Source: a virus (taxonomy: Duplodnaviria > Heunggongvirae > Uroviricota > Caudoviricetes). Taken from it: a stretch of 28,060 nt of DNA. This document shows, in pieces, positions 5,015-28,060 of the stretch. The translations under genes were made by a program, and so were the position numbers. Within the stretch, counting starts at the first letter, position 1; each line of letters begins with the position of its first letter. Under the pieces are notes generated by a model. It did no database searches. It saw only the letters and a list, made by a program, of their open reading frames with translations, and had not been told where the DNA came from. The stretch lies in the IMG/VR virus record IMGVR_UViG_2728369593_000002; one strand, given 5' to 3'.

Positions 5015-5527
5015 ATGACAACTCAAATTTCTGTTGAAACTCTCTCCCCGATCACCCATAACCAGATTCCTGTTATTACCACCGAACTTTTGGCGCAGCT
5101 TTACGGCACTGAGCCGGTGCGCATTCGCCAGAATCATCATGAGAACAAAGTACGCTTCGTTGAAGGGAAACACTTTTTCAAAGTTGTTGGTAATGACCTT
5201 AAAGAATTGCGGGTAGCTTTAAACTACTCACAAAATTTGCGGGTTACTTTAAGTAACTCACAAAATTTGCAACCATCTTTAAGAGGGTTACAAATTTCCC
5301 CGAAAGCCCGCTCCCTCATCCTCTGGACAGAACGCGGAGCAGCCCGTCATGCCAAAATGCTCGAAACCGATCAGGCGTGGGATGTGTTCGAAAAAGCTGG
5401 AAGACTGCTATTTCAGACAAAAAGGATCCGTCAGCGCCAGCTTCATGCCAGAAAAAGTTTACGACACGCGAGTTCTCTGTTATCAGCGAGGCGGTGTCAC
5501 TGTTTCCACAATTCAGTTGCGGGATGA
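5015..5527 (+). CDS. ORF6N/KilA-N-like DNA-binding domain protein (antirepressor-like moron); the C-terminus probably continues in ORF 5349..5630 after a frame break
   Basis: N-terminal region (ITTELLAQLYGTEPVRIRQNHHENKVRFVEGKHFFKV ... LILWTERGAARHAKMLE) resembles the ORF6N domain. The last 35 residues of this frame are Arg-rich and look out of frame. Confidence 0.55.
   Translation: MTTQISVETLSPITHNQIPVITTELLAQLYGTEPVRIRQNHHENKVRFVEGKHFFKVVGNDLKELRVALNYSQNLRVTLSNSQNLQPSLRGLQISPKARSLILWTERGAARHAKMLETDQAWDVFEKAGRLLFQTKRIRQRQLHARKSLRHASSLLSARRCHCFHNSVAG
5205..5294 (+). repeat. three tandem, progressively degenerate copies of a 30-bp unit inside the ORF6N gene
   Basis: aattgcgggtagctttaaactactcacaaa / atttgcgggttactttaagtaactcacaaa / atttgcaaccatctttaagagggttacaaa; encodes LRVALNYSQN-LRVTLSNSQN-LQPSLRGLQI. 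Confidence 0.55.
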
Positions 5528-7704: not shown

Positions 7705-8455
7705 ATGGCAAAACCGGACTGGGAGGCCATCGAATCGGCATACCGGGCCGGAGTCCTTAGCCTCCGTGATATAGGCGAGAAATACGGCGTTACAGAAGGG
7801 GGCTATCAGGAAGAGGGCCAAAAAGCTTGGTTGGGTACGCAGTGGCGGTACGCAGGTTTGCAAAAATGGTACGCAAAAAAGAAAAGTGCGTACCAGCAGA
7901 AAGCCTGCCATTACTGGCCTTACACAAAAAGGTACGCAACCAAAAACAGAACCTACACTGGATACGAAACCGATACGCGGAATGCGTACCGATCCCCCGA
8001 CTAACCCATTCCAACCCGGTAACCAGCAGGCATTAAAACACGGTGGTTATGCCCGTCGCCTTCTGCTCAAAGATGAGGTGATAGAGGACGCTAAAGCGTT
8101 GACGCTCGAGGACGAATTATTTCGCCTTCGTGCTAACAACCTTGTCGCTGCAGAGAATATTGGTCGGTGGCTGGTGTCGCTGGAAGATGCTAATGGGGAC
8201 CAGGAAAGGAAGATGCTGATGGAAAATATCAGCGCCGCCGAGAAAGCAATGATGCGCAATACAGTTCGTATTGAGTCCATCGTTGGCACGCTTGCGACGG
8301 TAGGAAAAATATTTGCTGATACAGCCTACCGCAAGGCCGCCACTGATAAGGTGTCTCTGGAGGCTGATCGTCTTCGCCGTGATGCAGGTATTGATGATGG
8401 CAATGGAGAGCGTGACCTCAATGACTTCTACTCTGACATCCAAACCGACGCTTAA
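7705..8455 (+). pseudogene. terminase small subunit, split by a +1 frame break at a G5 run (7798-7802); may be a real frameshift or a homopolymer sequencing error
   Basis: N-terminal HTH MAKPDWEAIESAYRAGVLSLRDIGEKYGVTEG is in one frame. The expected continuation AIRKRAKKLGWVR ... NPFQPGNQQALKHGGYA is in the next frame and ends at 8455. Removing one G restores a single ORF of about 249 aa. Confidence 0.65.
7834..7990. repeat. array of the 8-mer GGTACGCA (4 direct copies, 2 inverted copies TGCGTACC) within the small terminase gene; candidate pac/terminase recognition site
   Basis: Direct copies at 7834, 7847, 7868, 7931; inverted copies at 7887 and 7983; degenerate GATACGAAA/GATACGCGG nearby. 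Confidence 0.55.
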
Positions 8456-14655: not shown

Positions 14656-14874
14656 ATGGCAAAAAATGATGCAGTAATACACGTACATACCCCGTTTGTG
14701 CTCACGCTTCCCGACGGTTCACGGCGCGAGTTTGTTAAAGGCCGTCATGCTGTGGAGGAAGAAGTTGCCACGCACTGGTTCACTCGTGCGCACGCGGAAG
14801 TATCCGTTGGCAAAGCCACAGACGCGCGTAATGAGGTAAAAAAATGCCAAAGAATCAAAGTCTGCCAGCGGTAA
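14656..14874 (+). CDS. hypothetical head-tail joining protein
   Basis: 72-codon ORF; 3' end overlaps the next gene, whose ATG has a GAGG Shine-Dalgarno. Confidence 0.4.
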
Positions 14875-16719: not shown

Positions 16720-17865
16720 ATGGCACAGGGCTTGCCTGTATCAAACGTTGTTAATGTTGATGTGATCATGTCGCCGCGTGCAGCATCAGGGAGAAATTTT
16801 GGTGCATTACTCATTCTCGGCCCGTCCACAATCATTCCGGTAAGTGAGCGCATTCGTCGTTATTCTGCCGCGGAAGATATTGGAAAAGATTTTGGCGTGG
16901 AATCACCAGAATATAAAGCTGCGCAGGTGTTTTTCTCACAATCACCGAAACCTCAGGAGGTTTTTGTTGGTCGTTGGGTGAAAACGAAGGGAGACAGCGA
17001 ACAGGCCACGCCTGAGACGCTGGAGCAGGCTGTGAATGCCATACTCGATTATACTTCATGGTATGGGCTGGGGATTGCAGACGATGAAGATATTCCGGAT
17101 GCAGACTGGCTGAAAGTGGCTGCGGCGATCGAATCCTCTTCTGTAAGCCGTATTCTGGCGATTACGACAAGCGATGATAAATGCCTGCAGACTGCATCCA
17201 GCGATGATTTGGCATCAAAACTGAAAACCGCCGGATATTCACGCAGTTTTATTCAGTATTCATCGGGTAATAAATACGCTGCGTTATCTGCATTTGGCCG
17301 GGCATTCACGGTTAATTTCAATGGCAGTAATACCGCGATTACGCTCAAGTTTAAGCAGGAGCCGGGTGTCGGGTATGAAACACTGACAGTCAGCCAGGCA
17401 TCGGCACTTGATGCAAAAAACTGCAATGTGTTCGTGTACTATCAGAATGATACAGCTATCCTCCAGCAGGGAGTGATGGCTAACGGCGATTTCTTTGATG
17501 AACGCCACGGCCTGGACTGGTTACAGAATTATGTGCAGACCAACCTCTATAACCTGCTTTATACCAGCACCACGAAGGTTCCCCAGACTGAAGCCGGTAT
17601 TACCCGACTGTTATCAAATGTTGAAAAATCACTGGATCAGGCCGTTCAGAATGGACTGATTGCTCCGGGCGTATGGAACGGGGGCGACCTTGGCCAGTTG
17701 TCATCAGGTGACACGCTGCCCAAAGGTTATTACGTATACGCCCAGCCGCTGGATGAACAGGCACAATCAGAACGTGAAGCCCGTAAGGCTCCGGTGATTC
17801 AGGCTGCAATAAAACTTGCAGGCGCGGTTCATTACGCTGACGTACAGATTAACGTTGTTCGCTAA
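16720..17865 (+). CDS. contractile tail sheath protein (DUF3383-like)
   Basis: 381 aa immediately upstream of the tube gene. Family assignment is from memory. Confidence 0.65.
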
Positions 17866-17875
17866 GGGGAAGTGA

Positions 17876-18317
17876 ATGTCTACCTATTCTTTTATGGATG
17901 TCACTGCGACGCTGACCGGGCCGACCGGTTCGATTGACCTCGGGTACGGTTCTGCAAGTTCTGAAGAGGGGATTGGTGGTTGCGATGGGCGGTCCTAAAA
18001 ACACCATGACCATCGGTGCTGATGGTGAAGTGATGCACAGCCTCCATGCAGATAAAAGCGGGACGATTACCGTTAACCTTCTGAAGACATCACCGACAAA
18101 TAAAAAATTGTCGCTGGCGTATAACGCACAGAGCCAGTCTTCTGCCACATGGGGGAATAACGTTATCGTGATCCGCAACAAGGTCAGCGGCGACATCATC
18201 ACGGCACGCAGTGTTGCGTTCCAGAAACAACCGGATAATGCCAACGCTAAAACCGGTAATACGATGCCGTGGGTGTTTGACTGCGGCAAGATTGACCAGT
18301 TTCTCGGGGAGTTTTAA
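17876..18317 (+). pseudogene. tail tube protein (DUF3277-like) with a +1 frame break near 17975-17976; may be real or a sequencing error
   Basis: ATG 17876 with GGGGAAG Shine-Dalgarno gives MSTYSFMDVTATLTGPTGSIDLGYGSASSEEGI, then stops after 7 more codons. The next frame continues VVAMGGPKNTMTIGADGEVMHSLHADKSG to 18317. Deleting one G in GATTGGTGG joins them into about 146 aa. Confidence 0.6.
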
Positions 18318-18320
18318 TAC

Positions 18321-18773
18321 ATGGAATTCGAAATCAAAGGCGTGAAATATCGCGTGGCAAAACTCAGCGTTTTTGACCAGCTGAAAGTGACCCGCAAACT
18401 TCTGCCGGTGCTGGCAGGAATGATGTCAGATTTCGGGAGCATTCGCTCCCGTTTGCCTGCTGACGGCAAAATCGACACCGTGAAATTCGAGCAGTTAAAA
18501 CCGGTGTTTGAAACCATGCTCCCGCGTATCGCTGAGGAACTGTCTTCCCTGACCGAAGATGACACCGATGCGATTATTCACCCCTGTCTTGCGGTGGTAT
18601 CGCGGCGTCATATGGACGGATGGGTGCCGGTATTTACCCGGGGCGAACTGATGTTTGATGATATTGACCTGCTGGTCATGCTTCATCTGGTGGCGCGGGT
18701 GGTCGCCGATTCGCTGGGAAATTTTTTGCCTACGCCCCTTACCAGCACGACGCAGAGCCTGCAACAGGGCTGA
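18321..18773 (+). CDS. tail assembly chaperone (lambda gpG analogue)
   Basis: 150 aa between tube and tape measure genes; slippery heptamers near the 3' end. Confidence 0.65.
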   Translation: MEFEIKGVKYRVAKLSVFDQLKVTRKLLPVLAGMMSDFGSIRSRLPADGKIDTVKFEQLKPVFETMLPRIAEELSSLTEDDTDAIIHPCLAVVSRRHMDGWVPVFTRGELMFDDIDLLVMLHLVARVVADSLGNFLPTPLTSTTQSLQQG

Positions 18774-18961
18774 CGTTTAACAGCCTGCCGGACGGGCTGT
18801 CCTACCTTCTCAATCCGGTTGACGCCGGGTTAATTCCTTATACAGCACTTAAAGATGGCTCTGTCGATTTGTACGACATTGCTCTCTTGAATGACCATCT
18901 GGCGGTAAAAGCGGATAACCAGCGGCGCATTGAGAAATGGAGAGAGGATAATGAACGCTGA
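18321..18961 (+). CDS. tail assembly chaperone -1 frameshift fusion product (gpGT analogue)
   Basis: A AAT TTT / T TTT TTG slippery heptamers (18719-18728) in the zero frame. The -1 frame is open from there to TGA at 18959-18961 with no start codon of its own. Confidence 0.5.
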
Positions 18962-18999
18962 AACTATTAAAGATTTCCTCGGTCTCGCTTGGCTTCAGT

Positions 19000-20958
19000 G
19001 TGGATGATGCAGGAGCGAAAAAGTTCGGTTCTGTCCTCGCCGGTACAACTGCAAATGTCATCAAAATGGGGCTGGCTGTTGAAGGAGCTGCGCTGTCCGT
19101 GGTGGCCTTCACGGCTAAGATCGCCTCTGGTCTGGATAATCTTTACTGGGCGTCACAGCGCACCGGCGCGACAGTCCAGGGAATTCAGTCTATTGGCTAT
19201 GCGGTTTCGCAGGTTGGCGGCAGCGTGGACGCTGCGCGATCTTCTCTGGAAAGCCTCTCCCGGTTTATTCGTAACAATCCCGGTGCAGAAGGCTTTCTGA
19301 ATCGCCTGGGCGTACAGACCCGTGATGCCAGCGGTAACATGCGTGACATGGCCGCTATCTTTACGGGCGTTGGACAGAAACTCAGCAGCATGCCGTATTA
19401 CCGGGCTAACCAGTATGCGCAGATGCTGGGCATTGACGAAAATACCCTGATGGCTATGCGTCGCGGAGTGGGGCAGTTCAGCGCTCAGTATTCAGAAATG
19501 GTGAAAGCGATCGGATTTAATGCCGATCAGGCTGCCTTATCGTCAAACCGGTTTATGACCTCGCTGAAATCGCTCGGTGAAATGGCCGGGATGGCGCGGG
19601 ACAAAATCGGATCGAATCTTGCGGACGGACTGGCGGGGCAGATTGATAACCTGCGCAAAAAGATAATTGAAAATTTTCCCAAAATTGAAGTCACCATCAC
19701 AAAGGTCATAAAGGGGATCCTCTGGCTGGGTGAGATAGTCGGGCGGGTAGCATTTCGGATAGTCGATGGTGTCGGAGATATCATCGAGTGGTGGGGGAAA
19801 CTGGATGCCGAAACGAAAACCCTGATAGAGGTTATCGGCGGTCTGGTTGTCGCCATGCGGATACTTAACTCTACTTTCTGGATGTCACCTATAGGGCTGA
19901 TTACCGGTCTGATCGTGGCTCTCGGTCTCTTGTGGGAAGACTACAAAACATGGAAAGAAGGCGGTAACAGTCTTATCGACTGGGAAAAATGGCAACCGGC
20001 AATAGATAAAGCGAAGGATGCGATCACCTGGCTTCGTGATCACCTTCTGGAACTAAAAGATGGTGTTGGCGGCTGGCAAAATGCACTGGAAATCCTCGGT
20101 ACATTCATCGCGGGTGTCTGGGTATCCAGGGTTCTGGGGGCTTTCGGAAAAATATCAGGTTTACCGGTCCCACCCTGGCTTAAATTGTGGGCGCTTTACG
20201 CGGGCTATATTGTTAGTGACAGAGAAAATATTGCCGATAGCGCAAAATCTTCACTGAGGTATACGAAGCGAATTATCGGCGACACGCTGGCTGCTATTGG
20301 TATAAAAACAGATATCGGACGCAGGGATGTCAGTGAGGTCCGTGAATGGCCTGCGTGGATGGACTGGTTGCACGGGGGACCCGGTAAAGTTATCCGGCAG
20401 GGACAGAGTAACGGTGTAGTGCATGGCTCCAACGTCCAGCCCGACATCCCCGGCGGCGGCACTCTTGCTGATCGCAACAATAACCCCGGGAACATTCGCC
20501 CGGTGAGCGGTAAAGGGTTCCGGTTTTTCGAATCAGCGCTTGAGGGCTGGGAGGCGATGAAAAACCAGCTCATGCGTTACTTTACCGGGAAAACAACCGG
20601 ACGGGCATTACAGACTATTCAGGATATTGTCAGTACCTGGGCCCCGGCAGGTGATAACAACGATCCGAAAAAGTATGCACAGGATGTTGCGAAATGGATG
20701 GGAGTATCACCGAATGCAATATTGAATCTTACAGATCCCCGGACTATGGGAGCATTGATGCAGTCGATGGCGCGCAAAGAAGGTTATTCAAACTGGAACA
20801 GCCCGCTGGCGTATCAGGCCGCCGCTGGCAGCCTTAACCAGCAGACTGTTATAAATGTTCATGGAGTTAACAACCCTCAGGAGGCGGCTAATCTGATTGC
20901 TGACAAGCAGGGGGCTGTAAATGCCAGGGCGGTACAGCAATTGAAAGGGCCTGCGTGA
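19000..20958 (+). CDS. tail tape measure protein; true start may be ATG 18951 with a frame break near 18981
   Basis: 652 aa, helical, with a hydrophobic central segment, after the chaperone pair. The listed GTG at 19000 lacks a Shine-Dalgarno, whereas ATG 18951 has GGAGAGAGG upstream. Confidence 0.8.
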   Translation: MDDAGAKKFGSVLAGTTANVIKMGLAVEGAALSVVAFTAKIASGLDNLYWASQRTGATVQGIQSIGYAVSQVGGSVDAARSSLESLSRFIRNNPGAEGFLNRLGVQTRDASGNMRDMAAIFTGVGQKLSSMPYYRANQYAQMLGIDENTLMAMRRGVGQFSAQYSEMVKAIGFNADQAALSSNRFMTSLKSLGEMAGMARDKIGSNLADGLAGQIDNLRKKIIENFPKIEVTITKVIKGILWLGEIVGRVAFRIVDGVGDIIEWWGKLDAETKTLIEVIGGLVVAMRILNSTFWMSPIGLITGLIVALGLLWEDYKTWKEGGNSLIDWEKWQPAIDKAKDAITWLRDHLLELKDGVGGWQNALEILGTFIAGVWVSRVLGAFGKISGLPVPPWLKLWALYAGYIVSDRENIADSAKSSLRYTKRIIGDTLAAIGIKTDIGRRDVSEVREWPAWMDWLHGGPGKVIRQGQSNGVVHGSNVQPDIPGGGTLADRNNNPGNIRPVSGKGFRFFESALEGWEAMKNQLMRYFTGKTTGRALQTIQDIVSTWAPAGDNNDPKKYAQDVAKWMGVSPNAILNLTDPRTMGALMQSMARKEGYSNWNSPLAYQAAAGSLNQQTVINVHGVNNPQEAANLIADKQGAVNARAVQQLKGPA

Positions 20959-21608
20959 TGGACTTTTTATCTGTTTTACTGCAGCAGCGAACCCGCTCAA
21001 TAGGAATAATTATTCCTGATGTGGTTATTACCGAAAAGCACACTGACGCCCTGGAAATTACGGAACATCCGGTTGAACAGCCCACGAATGCTGGTGCCAG
21101 TGGTGAGGACGCTGGTTACATATCAGAACACGCATTCAGGCGCCCTTCTGAGGTTGTGATGGAAACCGGTTTTTCCGGAGGCGGATCGCTGCTTGATTTT
21201 GCCAGTAACCTGACTGCTACCAGTTTACTGGGGCTGAGCCCGAAAGAACTGTATCAGGAACTGCTTAACCTGCAGCGGAATCGTATTCCTTTCGATGTGA
21301 CAACCGGCAAGCGTATTTACAACAATATGTTGATAAAAACGCTGGAGGTCACGACCGATAAGAGTAGTGAAAATGTGCTTCTGGCGACACTTACCCTCAG
21401 GGAAGTAATTATTACCTCCACGCAGTCAGTCAGGGTTGCCCCGAAAAACAATATGACCGAGGGAGTCGGAACGTCTGCTGTGCAGAATACAGGCACCAAA
21501 ACAACGGTGCCGCCGAATAATTCCATTCTGAAATCGCTGCCACAGATGGCGCAAGAAGGTATCTCCACTGTTGATGGGTATTTGAGCAATTTATTTCTGG
21601 GAAGGTGA
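20955..21608 (+). CDS. hypothetical tail/baseplate protein
   Basis: 217 aa, start overlaps the tape measure stop. Confidence 0.45.
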   Translation: MMDFLSVLLQQRTRSIGIIIPDVVITEKHTDALEITEHPVEQPTNAGASGEDAGYISEHAFRRPSEVVMETGFSGGGSLLDFASNLTATSLLGLSPKELYQELLNLQRNRIPFDVTTGKRIYNNMLIKTLEVTTDKSSENVLLATLTLREVIITSTQSVRVAPKNNMTEGVGTSAVQNTGTKTTVPPNNSILKSLPQMAQEGISTVDGYLSNLFLGR

Positions 21609-22951: not shown

Positions 22952-22973
22952 AAAAAGTATTTTTTGGTTATTC

Positions 22974-23362: not shown

Positions 23363-23776
23363 ATGAAAACCATTACTTATACACAAATGCGTTCGGATTT
23401 ATCTGCCACGCTGGAATTGTTACGCTCAGGTGAGAGTGTAACGGTAACGCAACGGGGGAAGCCTGATACTGTTATCAGTGCAAAAACCGTTGATAAGGTG
23501 GTGTCTGGAAAAGAAATTAAGCCACAAAACAAAACGATAGATGCGCATCTTGCACAGTTAATTTCATCTAATTTATCCCCACAGGTAACGGAGGGAGTCA
23601 TGAAGTTTACTAAGCAATTAGATGTCCTTCTGCAGTCTGATGAGGCGCGCCAGGCAATGATGAAGGCTGCCAATGCTGCACTTGCCCTGCAGGGCGTATC
23701 AGAGTCATTTATTAAAGCTTTGCAACATACTCAGACTAAGCATGCGGAAATTATAAAAAAACTGGAAGATAAATAA
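23363..23776 (+). CDS. Phd/YefM-family antitoxin with long C-terminal extension (137 aa)
   Basis: N-terminus MKTITYTQMRSDLSATLELLRSGESVTVTQRGKPDTVI matches the Phd/YefM fold signature. GAGGG Shine-Dalgarno upstream; stop overlaps the Doc start (TAATG). Confidence 0.7.
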   Translation: MKTITYTQMRSDLSATLELLRSGESVTVTQRGKPDTVISAKTVDKVVSGKEIKPQNKTIDAHLAQLISSNLSPQVTEGVMKFTKQLDVLLQSDEARQAMMKAANAALALQGVSESFIKALQHTQTKHAEIIKKLEDK

Positions 23777-24183
23777 TGGCTGAGATTACGTTTCTTTCGG
23801 TTGATGAGGTTATTGCGATTCAGAAAAGTACGCTGCCGAACAGCGGGCAGCCTGATATAGGTAAGCTCGAAGGTGCCCTGAACAGGGTGCATAATCTGCA
23901 CATATATGAAGGCTGTGAGGATTTATTTAAATTTGCCGCTATGTATATGGTAGCAATAGCGAAGTCTCACGCTTTTAACGATGCCAACAAGCGAACAGCT
24001 TTCCAGGCCACCAGCATTTTCTTGCTAATGAATGGCTATGAACTTAACACCTCCATGGAGTTGGTGAAGTTGACTATCTTTGCTGCTACTGGAGAAGCTG
24101 ATTGTGATAATACTGCACTGGCACTAAAACTCTTGTCAGATTATAAGAATGAGCTGCTGGCAGACACGATTACTGGATACTGA
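23776..24183 (+). CDS. doc: Doc (death-on-curing) Fic-family toxin
   Basis: 135 aa with the Doc active-site motif HAFNDANKRTA; translationally coupled to the upstream Phd-like gene. Confidence 0.85.
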   Translation: MAEITFLSVDEVIAIQKSTLPNSGQPDIGKLEGALNRVHNLHIYEGCEDLFKFAAMYMVAIAKSHAFNDANKRTAFQATSIFLLMNGYELNTSMELVKLTIFAATGEADCDNTALALKLLSDYKNELLADTITGY

Positions 24184-27236: not shown

Positions 27237-28060
27237 TGGCAAAAAATGACTTTAAAGCATTCGCAACGGGTAAAAATGCCAATGTTATGTCGCAGGAGGA
27301 ATGGGAAGCGTTGCCTGCGCTTTTATCCGGATTTACAGCAGGGAAAGCCTCCAGTGCGCAAGTCAATAAGGTTATTCGGCAGGCCAGCTTTATTGCTGCA
27401 GCTCTGGCCCAGTTTGTAAGTGATAAAACGCAACGGGATGTGCTTGATAATGGTGATCTGCCCGGTTTTGTTGAATTGCTGGGATCGGGGTTTGCTGTTG
27501 AATACCTGAGCCGCAAGAATCCGTTTGGTGATATCAAATCGGATGGCACGGTGAAAACGGCTCTCGAAAAACCTTGGTTTGGGAGAAGGAGCTCCAGCTA
27601 TTGGCGTTCCGTTCTTCTGGCCGTCCGCTGCAATGCCAGATACCGTAATCGATAGCTGGTCCGGTATGGTGTTTTTGAAGTTCAACGGCGCGAAATTCTC
27701 TGCCACTGATTACCCTGTGCTGGCGAAAGTGTTTCCGGCGCTGGCATTACCTGACGCACGCGGTGATTTCATTCGTATCTGGGATGATGGGCGCGGGATT
27801 GATGTCGGACGTACCCTACTTTCAGGGCAATCACACACAATTATGGATCATGCACACAATATGGAATTGTGGACGGGGGACGGGCTTGCCGCAGGAAGTG
27901 CACGGGAAGGAGTAAACCCAGGAATACTGGCTACATATGGTGACGGGGGAATAGTTAAAACGGACGAACCCGGTCTTAAGGTGCCTTCCTCACTACGAGC
28001 TATTAGCTCTCGTAGTGTTAAACGTTATGGTGAAATTAGTGGAAATGTAGGTACAGAAAC
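27236..28060 (+). pseudogene. tail fibre protein, 3' partial (runs off window), with a +1 frame break at an A5 run (27567-27571); may be real or a sequencing error
   Basis: N-terminal frame ends in Arg-rich out-of-frame sequence at 27655. The adjacent frame reads NLGLGEGAPAIGVPFFWPS...LPDARGDFIRIWDDGRGIDVGR...HTIMDHAHN (tail-collar-like) to the window end. A4 instead of A5 joins them. Confidence 0.6.

Follow-up and report, generated by a model that had tools for sequence, protein, structure and literature searches.

A single extra G that splits the tail tube gene of an Escherichia coli prophage contig is probably a sequencing or assembly error

When the gene for a phage tail tube reads as two pieces, is the phage dead, is the protein made whole during expression, are there in fact two genes, or is the record at fault? 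The question is raised by the tube gene of a 28,060-nt stretch of DNA (the window, by which we mean the whole stretch that was analysed), which an exact-protein look-up with its sheath identified as the entire contig AKYH01000082.1 of draft assembly GCA_001605745.1. As read directly, an ATG at 17876 opens a 40-codon ORF that ends at a TAA at 17996-17998 (17876..17998; + strand, as are all features below except where stated). GGGGAAG lies upstream of this ATG, and the ribosome-binding region 5' of the start codon (17864..17875, AAGGGGAAGTGA) reads the same in relatives. The first 33 codons, MSTYSFMDVTATLTGPTGSIDLGYGSASSEEGI, are those of intact homologues, with residues 1-33 at 100 % identity to the intact tube by tblastn, and the last seven residues (GGCDGRS) are out of frame and derive from the frameshift. 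The remainder of the tube protein is encoded in the +1 frame, which from 17934 meets no stop codon before the one at 18315-18317 and in which the gene caller started a 113-aa ORF (17976..18317) at an internal GTG, at 17976, lying within the tube gene 4 nt 3' of GAGGGG. The initial annotation had placed the break after 33 codons of the tube, as both the ORF reading and the alignment with relatives bear out, and had described the downstream frame as a continuation of the tube without any start signal; it is indeed a continuation, but GTG 17976 does follow GAGGGG.

The gene is a tail tube gene of the DUF3277 type, as had been claimed from the letters. The repaired or intact protein matches Pfam PF11681 (previously DUF3277; its copies carry either the name Phage_Tube_PhiTE or the name KPP10_Orf10) with 204.5 bits, the gathering cut-off being 25 bits; the comparison with DUF3277-type tube proteins that had been proposed as a check thus succeeds over profile positions 1-144 of 144. 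The repaired protein also resembles the solved tube of cyanophage Pam3 (PDB 8hdr; E 1.1e-9 over query residues 1-137) and the tube proteins 9mt4 and 9c39 (E ~2e-8), and its available homologues are >90 % identical to it. The gene stands where a tube gene of this kind belongs, between an intact PF11863 (DUF3383) sheath gene (16720..17865; E 2.5e-101, protein 100 % identical to that of relatives) and a PF21822 tail assembly chaperone gene (18321..18773), intact by profile match and by comparison with relatives, with the tape measure gene next. The Pam3 tube subunit folds into a beta-barrel with two four-stranded sheets, to which a hairpin is added, and the hexamers stack around the tape measure (PMC9942802). 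By homology with that structure, the intact protein encoded here would be expected to assemble on the baseplate into stacked hexamers that enclose the tape measure and lie inside the DUF3383 sheath.

A single base separates the window from an intact gene. In alignments with E. coli PEC399 (L001) and phage vB_EcoM-606R2 (L002), both of which are annotated with a single 441-nt DUF3277 gene, the window has ATTGGTGG where they have ATTGTGG, that is, one extra, frame-shifting G in the GG at 17975..17976, where relatives have a single G. When base 17975 is deleted, a 441-nt ORF is restored, and its 146-aa product exactly matches an intact allele (P0047) that is present on 11 other contigs. The earlier proposal that a one-base deletion would restore a protein of about 146 aa is therefore correct, as is the string in which the extra base was placed, GATTGGTGG, although that string lies at 17971-17979 and not, as had been given, at 17970-17978. 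All relatives examined have one uninterrupted ORF of ~146 codons, which in the window is broken at 17975.

No other sequence examined shares the extra G. The tube gene is carried by 309 of 5,426 complete E. coli genomes. A 71-nt query with the site at its centre matched 305 genomes, none of which had the extra G; none was identical to the query, and the best identity was 98.6 % (70/71, one gap). A 30-mer with the extra G had no match in viral and metagenome contigs, while the intact 29-mer, which lacks it, occurs in 105 viral contigs. The contigs of representative genomes matched neither the 30-mer nor the intact 29-mer; that collection lacks the allele and is hence uninformative. Nor does the extra G occur in the related loci L003-L011, L013-L015, L017 and L019-L021. 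Every homologue examined, in 305 genomes, 4 isolated phages and 105 viral contigs, keeps the tube in one frame. Among ~15 billion proteins, the frameshift products of 40, 113, 652, 99, 170 and 102 aa are each found on exactly one contig, the window.

One could envision that the two ORFs are genuine separate genes, a small upstream peptide followed by an independently initiated protein of 113-127 aa. The GTG at 17976 has the Shine-Dalgarno-like GAGGGG 4 nt upstream and was chosen by the gene caller, and 27 contigs from other assemblies are annotated with a 113-aa form that has the same start codon (P0018); these annotations probably come from the gene caller's choice of start or from similar assembly errors. 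However, the two pieces follow one another within a single Pfam domain: the N-terminal fragment matches PF11681 at profile positions 1-33 (35.7 bits, E 9.9e-9) and the C-terminal fragment at positions 35-144 (157.1 bits, E 3.5e-46). In addition, essentially all relatives have one ORF, the 40-aa ORF exists on one contig only and owes its last seven residues to the frameshift, and the 113-aa ORF lacks the best-conserved N-terminal block of the family. An independent downstream ORF is mechanically conceivable, but we rejected it because the two ORFs make up consecutive parts of a single domain, and we regard a pair of genuine genes as highly improbable. Independent expression of the downstream ORF, which the initial annotation had named as the finding that would overturn its reading, is not the relevant alternative.

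Recoding would leave the tube gene functional: a programmed +1 ribosomal frameshift, perhaps prfB-like, or transcriptional slippage would join the two frames, and full-length tube would still be made. GAGGGG lies just 5' of the shift point, where a Shine-Dalgarno-like element could act, and recoding does occur in this gene cluster, since the adjoining chaperone gene has a true programmed -1 site. Near the end of that gene lies a canonical -1 slippery heptamer, T_TTT_TTG (18722-18728), from which the -1 frame runs without interruption across the DUF6889 segment (18728-18961) to a TGA at 18959-18961, predicting a 213-aa fusion of the G/GT type; relatives are annotated with DUF6889 as a separate small gene. 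The gene cluster of the tube thus has a counterpart of the programmed -1 frameshift of lambda G/GT, in that T_TTT_TTG leads through an open -1 frame into DUF6889. This site, however, belongs to the next gene and is conserved, whereas the tube break leads into the +1 frame, lacks conservation and has no slip site. The frame break recurs in none of the homologues counted above from genomes, phages and viral contigs, and GAGGGG, present in all intact copies, simply spells the codons for E-E-G. By inspection, the context AUU GGU GGU UGC offers no stop or rare codon, no repeat that would allow re-pairing and no pause element, and a change from G to GG does not create a slippage-prone tract. A programmed +1 frameshift was rejected because the break is not conserved and no slip site accompanies it, and recoding of either kind seems to us improbable in the extreme; even taken jointly, recoding and two separate genes account for very little of the probability.

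The extra G in the tube gene is not the only change of its kind. The window has ten private one-base indels, nine insertions and one deletion, and at each of them all relatives agree against it. Four insertions break an ORF6N gene: A4 to A5 at 5391, 5419 and 5456, and TT to TTT at 5458. An insertion from G4 to G5 at 7798 splits a 249-aa gene upstream of the large terminase gene, and one from A6 to A7 at 14838 falls in the last codons of an STY1053-like gene, of which only the C-terminus is affected, and in the spacer between the Shine-Dalgarno sequence and the ATG of the next gene. The G-to-GG insertion at 17975 in the tube gene is followed by another at 18981 (CTCGGTC against CTCGTC), which frameshifts the tape measure/lytic transglycosylase gene (18951..20958) after 10 codons; by tblastn, residues 11-668 of that protein are 100 % identical to those of relatives in another frame. 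The single deletion shortens T7 to T6 next to a T-to-G change (22959-22968) and frameshifts a 111-aa gene of the baseplate region that follows E217_gp41, and an insertion from A4 to A5 at 27567 frameshifts the tail-fibre gene. All nine insertions are copies of the adjacent base, and 7 of the 10 indels alter runs of four or more identical bases. The four insertions at 5391-5458 fall inside 68 nt, a clustering that 4 of 10 random sites would show by chance with a probability of ~5e-6.

Outside these sites the prophage appears pristine. When the relatives' proteins were compared with the window by tblastn, 32 of 39 genes were found to encode products identical to those of relatives (one with a single substitution), and the seven genes that differ are exactly those carrying the indels. 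The same comparison detected no in-frame or premature stop in the other 32 genes.

Nucleotide comparisons with near-identical prophages of other assemblies, which the exact-protein look-ups had also yielded, give the same picture. Against its nearest relative, L020, the window has 2 mismatches and 6 one-base indels over 21,055 nt (6813-27867); against L025 and L028 it has 0 mismatches and 5 insertions over 5.4 kb (2575/2803-8000); and positions 1-1479 have 3 mismatches and no indel against relatives. Counted outside the IS element, the total for the window is ~5 substitutions versus 10 one-base indels, a density of about one indel per 2.7 kb. Over the same 21 kb, L019 and L020 differ by 45 substitutions and 0 gaps, L015 and L020 by 2 substitutions and 0 gaps, and pairs that include L017 by 71-108 substitutions and 2 gaps. 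The excess of indels in the window as compared with relatives is significant (Fisher p 4e-8 to 5e-10), and the indel-to-substitution ratio on its private branch is at least 50-fold above that of the lineage. In L017 (GCA_023546125.1), 2 nt are deleted from a Dit-like baseplate gene at the equivalent of window positions 21316-21317, where the annotation has no gene; possibly this represents another frameshift or error, in a different assembly.

These observations bear directly on a further reading, namely that the insertion is real and very recent and that the prophage is defective, having no tail tube and hence no contractile tail. The sequence as deposited does show the break, prophages are known to decay, and this one carries an IS481-family insertion. 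Under such circumstances, the gene would yield the 40-aa peptide and at best a 113-aa, N-terminally truncated protein started from GTG 17976. Missing from that protein would be residues 1-33, which correspond to PF11681 positions 1-33 and include the best-conserved block common to the Pam3 tube and this one (M..YS..VTATL.G), so that the truncated product would probably lack the two-sheet beta-barrel fold of the Pam3 gp14 type (PMC9942802). A real mutation of this kind would, however, have had to arise together with the other frameshifts, ten in all, in the time of ~5 substitutions, in a lineage that shows at most 2 gaps per 45-108 substitutions; four independent insertions in 68 nt are very unlikely (~5e-6); and the 32 other genes are free of nonsense substitutions, deletions and amino-acid changes, save for a single substitution in one gene. 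Moreover, seven genes inactivated by one class of lesion, in a proportion of 9 insertions to 1 deletion, do not correspond to a spontaneous spectrum known for E. coli from mutation-accumulation studies. The signs by which decay would be recognized (nonsense substitutions, deletions, raised amino-acid change) are absent from the prophage, which has 0 in-frame stops and collinear gene content. Prophage decay as the main cause was rejected, the indel-to-substitution ratio and the clustering being incompatible with the pattern among relatives, and we consider a real, recent loss of the tube unlikely.

Alternatively, all ten indels could be real and have arisen in a burst of mostly +1 frameshifts, caused for example by an acridine- or ICR-191-like mutagen or by a frameshift-biased mutator state. 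A burst of this kind is in our view decidedly unlikely; were it true, it would have inactivated seven genes, those for tube, tape measure and tail fibre among them, within the time of about five substitutions in a prophage that is otherwise pristine. Were the tube frameshift real, it would merely add to the inactivated prophages of an E. coli type that is common, and would not amount to a new mechanism.

The split of the tube gene thus very probably arose as an error during base calling or assembly of a draft contig, a conclusion that follows from comparative and statistical evidence. The extra G is private and is accompanied by nine other private one-base indels against ~5 substitutions, and an error of sequencing or assembly is therefore the most likely explanation, rather than a dead phage; the earlier claim that the broken tube leaves the phage without a contractile tail is for the same reason unsupported. 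The excess of one-base indels as a whole is, in all likelihood, technical rather than mutational. The change occurs in one record and in no independently obtained sequence of this allele, one-base indels exceed substitutions on the private branch, and the indels alter the length of runs of identical bases. Homopolymer-length miscalls are suggested because the indels are private, are almost all insertions that duplicate a neighbour, fall mostly in short homopolymers and include a cluster of four, and because there are essentially no substitutions and the proteins are otherwise conserved. At the tube gene, a single G would have been read as GG at 17975/17976, and the real gene would be one 441-nt ORF for a 146-aa tail tube of PF11681 (DUF3277), as in phages Pam3, E217 and phiTE.

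Genuine change does exist in the prophage, which might be held against an artefact, but it is intergenic and common to other strains. The IS481-family insertion sequence occupies 1480-2574, between genes and just upstream of hokD, and is flanked by a 6-bp target duplication (AGGAGA). It carries an ORF on the minus strand (1429-2517) for a 362-aa rve transposase, which extends 51 nt past the left end of the element. The insertion is absent from the nearest relatives, and the same junction is found in other E. coli genomes at 99.8 %. Two further features concern the variable parts of the prophage. A Phd/Doc (Fic) toxin-antitoxin pair at 23363-24183 lies inside the block of baseplate genes, at a position held in L003-L005 by a DUF4282 gene, and this exchange points to a slot for swappable cargo. 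The end of the contig (27758-28060) matches L006 in the opposite orientation, and pinE lies just downstream in relatives, which fits with this end being part of a Pin-type invertible tail-fibre segment inside which the contig ends.

The contig is unsuitable as evidence that the prophage is defective, that its particles lack tails or that recoding takes place, and frameshifts elsewhere in GCA_001605745.1 warrant the same suspicion.

The prophage itself is a common E. coli element. The order of sheath, tube, chaperone and tape measure genes is shared with Pam3, whose tube is gp14 (8hdr), and with the intact E. coli prophage allele WP_000109249.1; in contrast to both, the window's ORF is split by the extra G into pieces of 40 aa and 113 aa. 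Once repaired, the window's tube is 100 % identical to an allele found on 11 contigs. The structural module is collinear with that of Escherichia phages vB_EcoM-606R2, 611R5, 683R1 and 689R2 at 97 % nucleotide identity, and with that of Salmonella phage SEN34, of the SEN34-like temperate myoviruses, at ~80 % identity; the records of the SEN34-like phages and of the E. coli prophages differ from the window in that their tube gene is intact. The remaining comparison is with a type of error rather than with a phage. Indels that misstate the length of a homopolymer are characteristic of assemblies from flow-based sequencing (454, Ion Torrent) or from long reads at low coverage. The window departs from this type in 2 of its 10 events, those at 17975 in the tube gene and at 18981, which change G1 to G2 outside any long homopolymer; the tube insertion is accordingly a less typical miscall than A4 to A5. 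It conforms to the type in that its indels are private, greatly outnumber substitutions, lie mostly in runs of four or more and include a local cluster of four, and in that every insertion duplicates the adjacent base.
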